A DNA stretch of 64,000 bases. It comes from Candidatus Poribacteria bacterium. Its GTDB lineage: Bacteria; Poribacteria; WGA-4E; PCPOR2b. The stretch is from positions 6,336,001-6,400,000 of the forward strand of contig OZ220744.1 of the NCBI GenBank assembly GCA_965116925.1. Direction: 5' to 3'. The translations under genes were made by a program, and so were the position numbers. The number at the start of each line of letters is the position of its first letter. The stretch's first letter is position 1. Below the pieces are notes generated by a model. It saw only the letters and a program-made list of their open reading frames with translations, was not told the origin of the DNA and ran no database searches. Below, piece by piece: positions 9,027 through 13,600 of this stretch.

Positions 9027-9332
9027 CTAACGCTGCTGGGCTTCCATATACGCCCGCAAGACTGCGTTCATACGTGTCTGGTAACCGCTTCCATGAGATT
9101 TGAACCACTCTAAAACATCGCTATCCACGCGCAAGGATATGGCACGCTTCGGTTGTGGCATCACGACTTGAGCATTTGCCCAAAACGTCTCATCCGTTGG
9201 TTGGGCATCCGCATCTGATGCAGCTGCTACTTCAATCTCGGACTCAGTCATATTTTTGACATGCTCCCAATCTGTCTGTGAATCCTTTGGGAGGTTATTT
9301 AGAGAATATCTCAAAGTATTTTTTCCTTTCAC
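9027..9332 (-). CDS. brnA: BrnA antitoxin
   Basis: TDWE...ISLRVDSDVLEWFKS-x-GSGYQTRMNAVLR ribbon-helix-helix motif; overlaps brnT. Confidence 0.92.
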   Translation of the reverse strand: MKGKNTLRYSLNNLPKDSQTDWEHVKNMTESEIEVAAASDADAQPTDETFWANAQVVMPQPKRAISLRVDSDVLEWFKSHGSGYQTRMNAVLRAYMEAQQR

Positions 9333-9570
9333 GGCGATTTGCTCTCCTTGCTGAGATTATACGCCAAATGCCGTCTCGAATGGTGTAGACAACATACAAG
9401 ATGACATCCTCGACGGTGCCCATCGCGGCGATTCGTTTTTCACCATAGTTATGGCGATTATCAACTACTGTGAGTGTTGGACGCTCAAAGATACGCACTG
9501 CATCCACAAAATCAATGCCGTGCTTTTCAATATTACGCTGGTTTTTGATCGAATCCCATTCAAATTCCAT
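9295..9570 (-). CDS. brnT: BrnT ribonuclease toxin
   Basis: MEFEWD-x-x-KN-x-x-N-x-x-KHGIDF...GEKR...RIISARRA. Confidence 0.93.
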   Translation of the reverse strand: MEFEWDSIKNQRNIEKHGIDFVDAVRIFERPTLTVVDNRHNYGEKRIAAMGTVEDVILYVVYTIRDGIWRIISARRANRRERKKYFEIFSK

Positions 9571-9777: not shown

Positions 9778-10509
9778 ATGGCAGTAAATGGAGCAGTACC
9801 GAAAGCCCGTTCTGAAGGTCGGGGACCGACGATTTGGCTCGCTGGTACTCCCGACGAGTTGGAGCCGTTAATGCCGCTGGGCATTGCTGGAATTGTTACC
9901 AATACCGTAGTGCTTAATCAATACGCTAAGGAGTACGGTTCAGTCATCGACCTGATCAAAGCATATCTTGACATAACCGACAAGCCTGTGGTCATGGAAA
10001 TTGATGGTCACACAGTCGAGGAACTGCTTGCGGTTGGGAAAGTATTTACTGACCTGTCGGATCAAATTATCCTGAAAATTCCCTGCACGTTTAATGGGCT
10101 CAAAGCCTTCAGCGTCCTCAAGGCAGAGGGGGTCGAGACCTTTTGCACAACGGTTTTTTCCTTGACCCAAGCCGCTGCGGTGGCTCAAGCCGGGGTCGAT
10201 CACATCCTGCCGTTCTGTGATCCTGTCAAAGCGGTGGGTGGTGATCCAACTCAACTGATACGTGAATGCGCACAGATGTTCAGTGGCTGGGAACAGCGGC
10301 CCTTTATCATGGCGGCACTTGTCCGCTCGGTGGAGACAGCCCACGCCGCCTTCCGTGACGGTGCTGATGAGCTCGTCACCATGTGCACGGTCTATCGTGA
10401 GATGATGGACCACCCGCTCACTGACGAATGGAACAAAACCTTCTTGGACGAGTGGGTTGATATGCACGAGAATGGGTTGCTCAAAGGCGTGCCGGTCACG
10501 CTTCATTGA
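9778..10509 (+). CDS. Divergent transaldolase / fructose-6-phosphate aldolase family protein
   Basis: GIVTN, LKIP (Schiff-base Lys), TTVFSLTQA and MAALVRS motifs; AGGAGG SD. Confidence 0.82.
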   Translation: MAVNGAVPKARSEGRGPTIWLAGTPDELEPLMPLGIAGIVTNTVVLNQYAKEYGSVIDLIKAYLDITDKPVVMEIDGHTVEELLAVGKVFTDLSDQIILKIPCTFNGLKAFSVLKAEGVETFCTTVFSLTQAAAVAQAGVDHILPFCDPVKAVGGDPTQLIRECAQMFSGWEQRPFIMAALVRSVETAHAAFRDGADELVTMCTVYREMMDHPLTDEWNKTFLDEWVDMHENGLLKGVPVTLH

Positions 10510-10594: not shown

Positions 10595-10626
10595 AGGCGA
10601 ATGGTTCAACCCATTCGCCTTTTTTA
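10595..10626 (+). terminator. Rho-independent terminator (copy 1 of a ~66-bp direct repeat, 10595-10661)
   Basis: AGGCGAATGG-loop-CCATTCGCCT followed by a T run. Confidence 0.75.
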
Positions 10627-10816
10627 TTAATTATCCCGGAAAGACTGGTAAGAGATAACCCGATTTTTTTTCAGACAAGCTACTCTGAATCCTGATCGCA
10701 GCATCTGGGAAACATGGTTTAAGGAAAAATTCAATTAATTTTCCCAAAATCATAAAAAAGTGCTAGAAAAAATCACAGAACTGTGTTTTATAAAGTGTAA
10801 GGGAGGAATCAGAATA

Positions 10817-12286
10817 GTGGCTAACGACAAGGCACTCATTTCCCGCGCCCAATCTGGAGATGAACAGGCATTTGCTGACCTGATGCGGGCGAATTATGCC
10901 TTCGTTTATGCGATCGTCATCGGAATTATGGACAATCCCCACGATGCCGAGGAAGTTGTCCAAGACACCTTTCTGAACGCCTATCATGGTTTGGCACAGT
11001 ATGAAGAGCAGACCAAATTCAAAAGTTGGTTGGCAACAATTGCGCGAAATCGTGCGCTAAACTGGTTGCGAGAACAAAGAATGGATACCGTGTCCATCAA
11101 CGAAGTGGAGGAGCACACACTTCAGGCTCCGAATACGCTCGACGACCAGTTGATACGCGACGAACAGAGAGAGCTGATTCGCCGTGCAACAGAAATGCTT
11201 TCGCAAAAAGATAAAGAGATTGCTCGCTCTTACTATCTTGATGGTGCAAGCTACGACGAATTGACGAAGACGCACGGATTGTCATACAAGGCGATTGCGT
11301 TCCGGCTGTCACGTGCGAAGCGGAGACTCGCCAAACGATTGCAATACCTGCTTACTGGTTTATCTGTTCCTCCTGCAACGACACTCAAACAGATCTACTC
11401 AGGAGGATTCACCGCCATGAAAATCGGAACAGCTCTTGCCAACAGAGGCAAAGTCCGAGATCTCTATGACCTCGGTGAGGAATTATTAATTATCTCAACA
11501 GATCGGATTTCGGCGTTTGATGTTGTGCTGCCGAATGGGATTCCGTACAAAGGGCAAATCCTGACCGGACTCTCTGAGTTCTGGTTTGATTACACAAAAC
11601 CGATTGTCGATAATCATATCATCACGACCGATGTTTCGCAGTATCCTGACGTGCTGCAAGCGGACGCGGAAGTGCTTAAAGGGCGATCAATGCTTGTGCG
11701 GAAAGCCAATCGAATCGATATCGAATGCGTCGTGCGAGGGTACATCGCGGGCTCCGCGTGGTCGGAGTATAAGCAGGATGGAACGGTATGCGGCGAAAAG
11801 CTGCCGGCAGGGCTAACCGAATCAGAGCGGTTGCCAGAACCCATCTTCACTCCTTCTACGAAGGCGGAGCATGGTGAACATGATGAGAACATCTCAATTG
11901 CAGAGATGGAGGCGGAGATTGGAAAGGAGTTGTCAGAAAAGATTATCCAAACCAGTTTCGCGCTGTTTGAAGCCGCGAGCGAACATGCCGAAAAGTCCGG
12001 AATCATCCTCTGCGACACCAAGTTTGAGTTCGGGGAGATTGACGGTCAACTGATTCTCATTGATGAGGTCTTCACCCCCGATTCATCACGCTTTTGGCCC
12101 AAGGACGAATATAAGCCCGGTAGCTCCCCACCCAGCTTTGACAAACAGTATGTTCGTGATTACTTGAGTGATATTGGATGGAACAAAGAGCCCCCGGCAC
12201 CTGAGTTGCCAGCAGAGGTCATCCGCCAAACCAGCGAAAAATATCTGGAGGCGTATCGCCTGATTGTTGGGCGGGAATTATTGTGA
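10817..12286 (+). CDS. purC: ECF sigma-70 factor fused to SAICAR synthetase (PurC)
   Basis: N-terminal region 2 (DAEEVVQDTF..FKSWLATIARN) and region 4 (GASYDEL..RLSRAKRRL). C-terminal GKVRDLY, TDRISAFD, IECVVRGY, DTKFEFG, DEVFTPDSSRFW and DKQYVRD. GTG start follows GGAGG. Confidence 0.92.
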   Translation: MANDKALISRAQSGDEQAFADLMRANYAFVYAIVIGIMDNPHDAEEVVQDTFLNAYHGLAQYEEQTKFKSWLATIARNRALNWLREQRMDTVSINEVEEHTLQAPNTLDDQLIRDEQRELIRRATEMLSQKDKEIARSYYLDGASYDELTKTHGLSYKAIAFRLSRAKRRLAKRLQYLLTGLSVPPATTLKQIYSGGFTAMKIGTALANRGKVRDLYDLGEELLIISTDRISAFDVVLPNGIPYKGQILTGLSEFWFDYTKPIVDNHIITTDVSQYPDVLQADAEVLKGRSMLVRKANRIDIECVVRGYIAGSAWSEYKQDGTVCGEKLPAGLTESERLPEPIFTPSTKAEHGEHDENISIAEMEAEIGKELSEKIIQTSFALFEAASEHAEKSGIILCDTKFEFGEIDGQLILIDEVFTPDSSRFWPKDEYKPGSSPPSFDKQYVRDYLSDIGWNKEPPAPELPAEVIRQTSEKYLEAYRLIVGRELL

Positions 12287-12362
12287 AGGTTGGGCTGTGA
12301 TGCTAGACATCTGTTGACGTACTCCCAAACCTAAAGGATTGAGATTCGCACCCATTTCAATT

Positions 12363-12501
12363 TATGGTAGATTTTAGAATTAATAAGACACTCCAAAATG
12401 CACAACCAACCCCCTAAATCCCCCTTATCAGGGGGACTTTGGAAACTTCGCGAAGGTCGAAGTTATTGGTAAATGTCCACTTATTTTTAGAATTCACTAT
12501 A
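12363..12501. mobile_element. MITE family A copy
   Basis: Ends TATGGTAGATTTTAGAATTAA ... TTATTTTTAGAATTCACTATA, with an internal CCCCCTTATCAGGGGG hairpin. Confidence 0.7.
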
Positions 12502-12549: not shown

Positions 12550-12580
12550 AGGCGAATGGTTTAATCCATTCGCCTTTTTT
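12550..12580 (+). terminator. Rho-independent terminator (copy 2 of the direct repeat, 12550-12615)
   Basis: AGGCGAATGG-loop-CCATTCGCCT followed by a T run. Confidence 0.75.
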
Positions 12581-12736
12581 ATTGATTGTCGCCGAAAAGA
12601 TTGGTAAGATAACCCAAGTTGCCACCTGTGAAGATGTTCCTGTTATCAGCAGATGGCTTTGTCTATCTGTGGTGAATACCCTCTTATTCAACTGGTTTTT
12701 TGCTAAGTTTTATGACTAATGAAGGAGACATACAAA

Positions 12737-13600
12737 ATGGCTGAACCCTTGAGGATACTCTCAATTGGCGCACACCCGGCGGATATTTTCGATCAATCCG
12801 GTGGTACAATGGCGCATCACACAAGTCGAGGAGATTACGTCGGTTGTGTGGTGTTGACCCACGGTGCCCGTGTGCATGACGCTGTGATCAGTGACTCAAT
12901 GTTTCATCGCGAGGAGGTTCCAGATGAATCTGATCTACTGGCGTTGATGGAAGAACGCTCAGATGTCAAAGCGGAAGAAGTTCGTAAGGGGTGCAAGATT
13001 TTGGGCGTCGAAGATATCTACTTCTTTGGTGCAGACGACGCTGTACTGCTTGTTACGGAGGAGACGGTGAAACGGCTAGCGCGGTTGTTGCGCGAGGTGC
13101 GTCCCGACATTATCCTGACCCACTTTCCCAAGGAGGGCGATGGATTAACTAACGCACACGCTGTCGCGGGACAGATTACGCTCCACGCCATTTCACATGC
13201 GGGTAGCGTTGATCCGGGCGATCGAAATACACCCCACAAGGTAGCACAGGTTTTCTTCTTTGGGGCCGGTGCGGCGGCTATACCACGAAGCGTATGGCAA
13301 TCCGAGGGCGGCTATTACAACGATGTATTTGTTGACATCACGGATGTGGCAGATAAGAAACTAGCGGCACTGGATTGCTTGGTAAGTCAGGGATATGGTG
13401 GAGCGTATGCCCGCAAACGGATTGAAACCAGCGATGGTGCGTTTGGCAGCGCAGGCGGTTGTGCCTATGCGGAGGGATTTATCTCATCAAGTGCGGAAAC
13501 CCATTACTACTTACCCGTCACGGAACACGCGCTCAAAAACGCTCGTGCCTCCGACCATGAACGGATAGCGGCGAACTCTTATCGGGTTTCGGTTGACTGA
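12737..13600 (+). CDS. PIG-L/LmbE family protein (GalB oxalomesaconate hydratase-like motif)
   Basis: GAHPAD, LTHG, RPDIILTH, VDITDV..KK and AEGF motifs. Start MAEPL follows AAGGAG. Confidence 0.82.
   Translation: MAEPLRILSIGAHPADIFDQSGGTMAHHTSRGDYVGCVVLTHGARVHDAVISDSMFHREEVPDESDLLALMEERSDVKAEEVRKGCKILGVEDIYFFGADDAVLLVTEETVKRLARLLREVRPDIILTHFPKEGDGLTNAHAVAGQITLHAISHAGSVDPGDRNTPHKVAQVFFFGAGAAAIPRSVWQSEGGYYNDVFVDITDVADKKLAALDCLVSQGYGGAYARKRIETSDGAFGSAGGCAYAEGFISSSAETHYYLPVTEHALKNARASDHERIAANSYRVSVD

Follow-up and report, generated by a model that had tools for sequence, protein, structure and literature searches.

The window analysed here was a stretch of 64,000 nucleotides from a Candidatus Poribacteria genome (G000). 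Positions 10817-12286 of its plus strand comprised a single open frame of 489 aa, running from GTG 10817 to TGA 12286. The Shine-Dalgarno (SD) sequence AGGGAGG favours GTG 10817 as the start over an upstream GTG at 10760. The original prediction had described an ECF sigma factor with regions 2 and 4 followed by a full PurC, and Pfam and NCBIfam models confirmed this order in the one frame (Table 1). Both sigma regions lay in a short core within aa 22-171, as expected for an ECF (group 4) sigma factor. The sigma half scored 92.9 bits against TIGR02937 (ECF superfamily, cut-off 42.9), and its fold matched SigE, SigW and AlgU. None of the named NCBIfam equivalogs among the 25 models listed reached its cut-off. 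The SAICAR_synt domain was placed by Pfam at aa 209-458. This half scored 415 against PRK13961 (cut-off 251) and 236 against TIGR00081 (cut-off 190). It was affiliated with the long Ade1 type by sequence similarity to yeast Ade1 1A48 (E 1e-77), and its fold matched Ade1-type structures with TM values of 0.85-0.90, depending on the target. Pfam gave only sigma region 2, sigma region 4_2 and SAICAR_synt; a SnoaL-like or TPR extension was absent, as was a MerR helix-turn-helix or coiled coil with a TipAS-type effector.

Table 1. Features of the sigma-PurC locus and its borders, in window positions.
Feature	Position	Strand	Remarks
Transaldolase-family gene bounding the variable slot on the left, outside the cassette	9778..10509	+	PF00923
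Terminator-like hairpin, left copy of the 48-nt direct repeat flanking the cassette	10595..10642	+	also around ECF paralogs elsewhere in the genome
Promoter-like element common to the ECF family; putative autoregulatory promoter	10755..10792	+	upstream of 39 family genes
Ribosome-binding site for GTG 10817, start of the full-length gene	10800..10806	+	pairing with the 16S tail of the genome, -10.4 kcal/mol
ECF sigma region 2, aa 22-88	10880..11080	+	Sigma70_r2 PF04542, E 9e-17
ECF sigma region 4, aa 119-171	11171..11329	+	Sigma70_r4_2 PF08281, E 9e-6
Linker from the membrane-anchored parent ECF, aa 176-200 of low confidence in the model	11342..11416	+	
Internal SD AGGAGG (11401-11406; Ser-Gly-Gly codons) with in-frame ATG 11417	11401..11419	+	-10.3 kcal/mol
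MKIGTA, stub of the parent's C-terminal module, transmembrane helix gone	11417..11434	+	
Copy of the genome's own purC, Ade1/long type	11435..12286	+	92.7% nt, 97.5% aa
High-copy intergenic repeat, not cassette-specific	12340..12500	.	up to about 300 genomic matches, very high contig depth
Right copy of the 48-nt hairpin repeat	12550..12597	+	88% identical
PIG-L deacetylase-family gene bounding the variable slot on the right, outside the cassette	12719..13600	+	PF02585

An AlphaFold model built from a 124-row alignment showed two domains and a low-confidence linker (pLDDT 84, pTM 0.61), with pLDDT mostly above 90 in the PurC half. It replaced an earlier, poor model from a 14-row alignment (pLDDT 61). 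Prediction of a complex between the two halves scored 0.00 in two runs, with the controls not folded, and it is no evidence either way. The PurC half retained all 89 positions that were invariant across 143 native PurCs. Judged by conserved positions and fold, it appears to be a catalytically intact SAICAR synthetase.

The junction was covered by a Logan contig of run X1, possibly the source sample, which spanned 11023-11530 with zero differences and thereby crossed the interval 11380-11460 that had been singled out for checking. No reads were placed on the locus from the raw-read run X21, of which about 1 in 100 reads was sampled. A junction-spanning piece was absent among the pieces listed for run X2, which comprises 2135 further pieces. 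RNA run X3, from another strain, held only parent-type and native-type contigs, breaking at 11434-11435. An assembly artefact would fit a junction-spanning contig that came only from X1 and a raw-read run that placed nothing. Against it, both halves were found together in 18 genomes and in 35 of the 120 database proteins listed, from independent assemblies and with synonymous divergence from the native copy. The same junction type was present in G008 and in the proteins P0001-P0008 of other assemblies. Because the fusion recurs, the artefact is refuted and its probability is negligible.

A second purC had been proposed as a target of the search, and a native stand-alone copy was indeed present at C1:5730787-5731680 on the minus strand, about 600 kb from the fusion and with its own N-terminus. 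The native protein matched the fusion from residue 207 at 97.5% aa. Of the changes between the two genes, 53 were synonymous and 7 non-synonymous (dN/dS 0.034). They also held a 125-nt identical run (p=0.0014), which suggests patchy purC gene conversion in G000. The sigma half had ten paralogs in the same genome (63-71%), all showing the same sigma core and linker, then a transmembrane helix and an extracytoplasmic domain. Nearer unfused relatives (86-92%) were encoded by further members of the genus. Among the 120 database proteins closest to the sigma half, 23 carried PurC and 97 lacked it, and in 94 of the latter a transmembrane helix followed the sigma core. The hydropathy maximum was 0.57 in the fusion vs 2.5-2.6 in four parents; a helix was recognised in the parent and none in the fusion. 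Since the paralogs share core and linker before the helix, and 94 of 97 unfused relatives carry this helix, purC is concluded to have replaced the membrane sensor. As far as gene comparison can show it, a duplicate of a membrane-anchored ECF gene swapped its transmembrane sensor in frame for a copy of the host purC. By the same comparison, the Poribacteria ECF gene was shown to have a layout of sigma, linker, SD with ATG and an exchangeable C-terminal module. Among the 41 sigma-like ORFs of G000, only this one carried a near-identical copy of a non-sigma gene as extension. A decayed remnant of a close sigma relative was located at C1:2619836-2620042, comprising the promoter element and the first 47 or so codons, frameshifted.

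The hexamer AGGAGG and the in-frame ATG of the junction were found as described. The protein starting at this ATG had been called a PurC of normal length. With 289 aa vs 298 in the native protein, its length is near-normal; MKIGTA, its first six residues, is of sigma-parent origin and stands in place of the 15 N-terminal residues of the native enzyme. An SD with ATG was present at the junction in 17 of the 18 fusions, the SD pairing at -8.4 kcal/mol or below and the ATG lying 10-39 codons before the KVR motif. In the control, 7% of 600 windows reached -7 kcal/mol. The claim that one gene makes both sigma-PurC and stand-alone PurC is therefore well supported at the sequence level, and the gene probably yields a soluble sigma-PurC fusion plus free PurC from 11417. 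The first Gly codon of the linker was GGA in 33 of 38 family genes vs 15% of Gly-Gly pairs genome-wide, the family genes being kin and so not independent. The SD with ATG also occurred in 42 of 44 rows of ECF extensions other than PurC, two of which represent one gene. The internal start thus belongs to the ECF chassis and is inherited from the parent, and its presence is therefore no proof of selection for two products. Capture of purC by a sigma and internal-start cassette at the AMKIGT linker, offered in the original prediction, is the origin that the comparison showed, with an SD owned by the chassis. It had been set as an alternative to the two-product reading; the two are compatible, and both are supported to a differing degree. 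G004 held the sole fusion without the SD and ATG. Its cassette comprised a separate purC with its own ribosome-binding site, and the fused PurC was still conserved, an arrangement that would fit a need for both fused and free PurC.

The cassette occupied a variable slot. Among 17 genomes of the genus, the slot contained no sigma gene in six, the parent only in three, the fusion without parent in six and both in two. The empty-slot joint was present in runs X1 and X2. A genome-wide search with a position weight matrix of the promoter-like element returned 17 top rows, all at family sigmas, a sigma remnant or their array genes. The element scored 56 at the cassette, -8 upstream of the native purC and -14 upstream of the HAD-family gene described below. 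The value upstream of purE was 0.3, which is above the random 95th percentile (-4.5) and far below the family sites. A purine regulon as target was rejected as far as tested, with native purC, the HAD gene and purE scored. Because the motif is absent upstream of the native purC, a self-loop is the better fit and a role in the purine regulon is unlikely. The sigma factor would accordingly drive its own promoter, as we infer from the element; conservation of the element could also reflect shared ancestry of the family genes.

PF01259 was found in 169 of 176 Poribacteria genomes with 191 matches. The fusion survey followed long frames and multi-match genomes from the 150 matches listed, and its count is a lower bound. 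ECF-PurC fusions were confirmed in at least 18 of the 176 genomes, ten of them among the 20 genomes of the window's genus, so that the fusion is not confined to one genome, a state that, together with a decaying sigma half, would have refuted the regulatory reading. The native purC was also present in 15 of the 18 fusion genomes; the other three were drafts, 79-88% complete. A sigma tree of 27 chosen rows needed 11 changes, eight of them forced by strong branches, and the AU test on these author-chosen rows rejected one clade (p=1e-5). A quick tree of 89 rows showed 13 changes, seven of them forced. On this phylogenetic evidence, PurC is considered to have been gained repeatedly by unrelated sigma subfamilies, and some of the changes may be losses. 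In the PurC tree, the 18 fused rows needed 16 changes, no fewer than with shuffled labels (mean 15.6). The fused PurC paired with the native copy of its own genome in G000, G005, G008, G015, G021 and G119. The unfused parent was often the nearest relative and adjoined the fusion (G004, G015, G021, G119, G134 and G141). Junctions differed, several with short motifs common to parent and native purC, and the leftover hydrophobic stub was absent or more polar in several lineages of genus g1. The fused copy of G021 was 99.5% identical to the native purC, including about 100 nt past the stop. In a search for sigma-PurC beyond Poribacteria, only P0008 among the best 150 representatives covered the whole profile, and further fusions may be concealed in 50% clusters whose representative is a plain PurC. 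In G100 (L079), the one purC detected was split by a frameshift or stop, either a real break or a sequencing error.

Both halves of the fusion are under purifying selection, as shown by pairwise averages that are non-independent. For the sigma cores, dN/dS was 0.15 in fused genes vs 0.12 in parents, and the decaying sigma half that would have spoken against a regulatory role was not seen. For PurC, it was 0.07 in fused copies vs 0.06 in natives. Excluding P0021 (frameshifted tail) and P0071, 52 fused and 143 native PurCs were compared. All 89 invariant positions were kept in 28 of the fused PurCs, the window copy included. Departures concentrated at Ser336 and Ser313. Every native had Ser at 336; 11 of the 52 fused copies, spread over at least four lineages, had W, F, L or C there, and the window copy had Ser. 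Ser313 was changed to Thr in eight. In distant PurCs, A, G, C and N were tolerated at Ser336, and occasionally Y or F. The Ser336 changes are only suggestive, because the site is not strictly conserved in these distant proteins and relaxed constraint may explain them.

In the 120 closest sigma relatives, Pfam recognised PurC (23 of 120) and no other domain besides those of the sigma factor. The PurE family (PF00731) gave exactly two matches in all 20 genomes of the genus, and no frame exceeded 355 aa among the 150 of 344 matches listed (one frame of 355 aa in G052). Lyase-family genes held at most three matches in every genome of genus g1, with no extra matches. Capture of purC is specific, and nothing comparable was seen for PurE or the lyase family in genus g1. 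Of the multi-match genomes, 15 of the 19 examined carried an ECF-fused purC copy; G158 and G043, with two PF01259 matches each, lay outside this set. An unfused extra purC was present in G059 and G123 and as a fragment in G170, with no sigma gene in the fetched flanks of these three, and G004 also held one. The last of the 19, G100, was the genome with the single split gene. A HAD-family gene, which we take to resemble nucleotide 5'-phosphatases, was matched in 18 of 20 genomes of the genus. It was doubled in exactly three, where the gene follows the fusion. The co-copied genes (L027:10773-11447, L038:9346-10020 and L033:6937-7611) were located at two independent loci, and the native gene lay about 50 kb from purC.

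Other core proteins were also found behind ECF sigma factors. ECF-FtsZ fusions were present at L070:3524-5182 in G134 and in many genomes of family f2, often in frames of 1350-1450 aa, and the ECF-FtsZ gene of G134 was the parent of the adjacent sigma-PurC gene. Ten of 120 proteins listed joined an ECF to a whole, diverged DnaN-like clamp (DNA polymerase III beta) with a junction Met, at 42-45% to DnaN of G000 (P0463, P0481, P0483, P0485, P0492, P0504, P0508, P0509, P0516 and P0519). Three unrelated MerR-PurC fusions (P0224, P0259 and P0349) were detected among 31 long PurC representatives scanned, joined just before the GKVR motif. The P0259 cluster comprised 27 members, one of them labelled Oscillospiraceae. 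Intact MerR-PurC was found at none of the 80 purC loci retrieved with P0259; one of these (L097) showed a broken MerR remnant just upstream of purC.

The parent gene has the same layout as the membrane-anchored ECFs with fused anti-sigma domain (IutY and ECF48, ECF52 and ECF53, e.g. SCO4117), as set out in the available text of PMC8999054: an ECF core, a linker, one helix and an extracytoplasmic domain. The fusion differs from this type in having lost helix and sensor and in carrying a cytoplasmic housekeeping enzyme from the host, and an enzyme extension of the PurC kind is not mentioned for these ECFs in the same text. A soluble domain likewise stands behind sigma region 4 in ECF41 and ECF56 (SnoaL-like), ECF42 (TPR) and ECF238 (Cys-rich), according to the accessible parts of PMC7826278 and PMC8999054. 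Those extensions are described there as group-specific, whereas the fusion carries a near-identical, intact purC of its own genome that was gained repeatedly by unrelated sigmas. The tipA gene gives two in-frame products (PMC7762955, PMC6078987, in the portions available). The fusion would resemble TipAL/TipAS and AlbAL/AlbAS, in which one gene gives a regulator and a free C-terminal domain with self-activation, the two products being predicted for the fusion. The TipA class has a MerR helix-turn-helix and a drug-binding domain, whereas the fusion has a sigma factor and a metabolic enzyme and so is no member of it. Sigma-PurC probably joins the ECFs with regulatory extensions, and by analogy may work in a TipAL/TipAS-like manner. 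The enzyme half shares family and fold with the Ade1-type SAICAR synthetases (yeast Ade1, 1A48/2CNQ; M. abscessus PurC, 3R9R), and differs in being an extra copy on a transcription factor. No description of a sigma-PurC fusion was found in the literature searched, which lay mostly outside subscription papers. SAICAR, purC and Poribacteria do not occur in the main text of the ECF re-classification paper (PMC7826278), whose supplements list group extensions and may bear on novelty.

For the function of the gene, a self-activating two-product cassette similar to TipAL/TipAS is favoured tentatively, at somewhat below an even chance, with PurC as both output and sensor. An ECF duplicate exchanged its transmembrane sensor in frame for the host purC copy, and such swaps took place many times in the phylum. 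The gene would yield soluble sigma-PurC and free active PurC from 11417, and the sigma factor would fire its own promoter. The fused PurC would take over the role of the sensor. Whether it has bound substrate or product, is blocked by an analogue or is under attack from a foreign protein would gate the sigma factor. Trouble at the CAIR-to-SAICAR step would then lead to more PurC, plus the co-copied HAD-family gene in some genomes. This weight was given because the ECF-fused form prevails among extra purC copies, fused and free PurC coexist in G004 and the changes in fused copies fall at sites of their own. The repeated origin on unrelated sigmas, the specific capture of purC, the conservation of both halves and the ECFs with FtsZ and DnaN also speak for it, as do the MerR-PurC fusions, in which the swap was made on a different class of regulator. 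Against such a loop, the linker is of low confidence in the model, and an in-frame fusion is expected from SD-ATG recombination or where the native start is lost. The fusions differ widely in junction length and in sigma subfamily, and an allosteric interface specific to the pair would therefore have to evolve anew in every case. A constitutive amplifier is the main rival, possible but less favoured: loss of the anchor would free the sigma factor, its own promoter would be constantly active and more PurC (and HAD) would be made, with no control of sigma by the fused PurC. Its weight reflects direct precedent and a swap that would succeed whichever sigma and linker were involved. In the available text of the sources, truncated IutY was active without signal (PMC8999054), and TipAN and MtaN, freed of the effector domain, were constitutively active (PMC7762955). 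The conserved catalytic positions (all 89 in 28 of 52 fused copies), the unfused extra purC of G004, G059, G123 and, as a fragment, G170, the HAD gene, whose doubling was limited to the three genomes that carry it behind the fusion, and the restriction of the promoter motif to the family's own arrays are also consistent with it. The amplifier fails to explain why most extra purC copies are fused to an ECF rather than placed behind any strong promoter, why G004 conserves a fused PurC next to a free copy and why recurrent Ser336 changes are limited to fused copies.

The sensor-and-output loop can also be seen within a wider reading, which we consider rather unlikely, that Poribacteria ECFs form a modular platform for surveillance, in which copies of core proteins at risk are built in as baits. 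PurC would have entered it repeatedly and in recent times, and the FtsZ and DnaN copies are more diverged. Whatever strikes the true target, be it an inhibitor, a toxin or a protein of a phage, would strike the fused copy too; the sigma factor would then be switched on and more free target made from the internal start. The MerR-PurC fusions that recur in other lineages would be the same answer to the problem, pointing to a natural attacker of SAICAR synthetase. The integrated decoys of plant NLR receptors, and likewise duplicated-target resistance genes, are cases in which a regulator or cassette carries a copy of the host target; the similarity to sigma-PurC is one of resemblance only. It is improbable that the sigma factor itself is the point. 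PurC would in that case be a soluble cap by which an anchored ECF becomes a trans-activator in the cytoplasm, acting on the parent's regulon, with incidental enzyme activity. The six genomes in which the fusion adjoins its unfused parent and the hydrophobic stubs trimmed or made polar in several g1 lineages agree with this. For this purpose a simple stop codon, or a soluble domain of any kind, would suffice, yet PurC was chosen repeatedly and is nearly as constrained in fusions as in natives (0.07 vs 0.06). A neutral by-product of a recombination-prone family, looking intact through gene conversion with the native purC, is disfavoured and highly improbable. Conversion is likely, given the 125-nt identical run in G000 and the G021 copy that is 99.5% identical past the stop, and the cassette is accessory, the slot lacking a sigma gene in 6 of 17 genomes and the empty-slot joint occurring in X1 and X2. 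On the other side, fused copies at dS 0.3-1.3 from their own native copy still showed dN of 0.01-0.11, the sigma half, which cannot be converted from purC, was conserved, and the control genes were without comparable copying.

In this phylum of sponge symbionts, unrelated sigmas converged many times on one intact housekeeping enzyme of their own genome, and the recurrence provides strong comparative evidence for selection acting at the SAICAR step. The pattern hints at a direct route from a core metabolic enzyme to gene control, which is undescribed in the literature found. If PurC gates the sigma factor, metabolism or target damage would be wired to transcription in a new and direct way, and the protein would be a ready-made biosensor for PurC ligands and inhibitors. 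If it does not, the gene would still be a natural plug-and-play expression chassis.

The surroundings of the fused and native genes showed further small features. Two small overlapping ORFs were present at 9027-9570 on the minus strand of the window, presumably a BrnT/BrnA toxin-antitoxin pair. The region upstream of the native purC was likewise a variable slot, with a small TIR-domain gene directly before purC in four genomes (L049:7834-8235, L051, L058 and L041). P0071 (TIR-PurC) was set aside and is probably a read-through of the TIR gene just upstream of the native purC. At C1:5634586-5658500 of G000 (L002, L003), six membrane-anchored ECF paralogs were interleaved with TolB-like repeat genes (labelled by eye) and had the upstream element in common.
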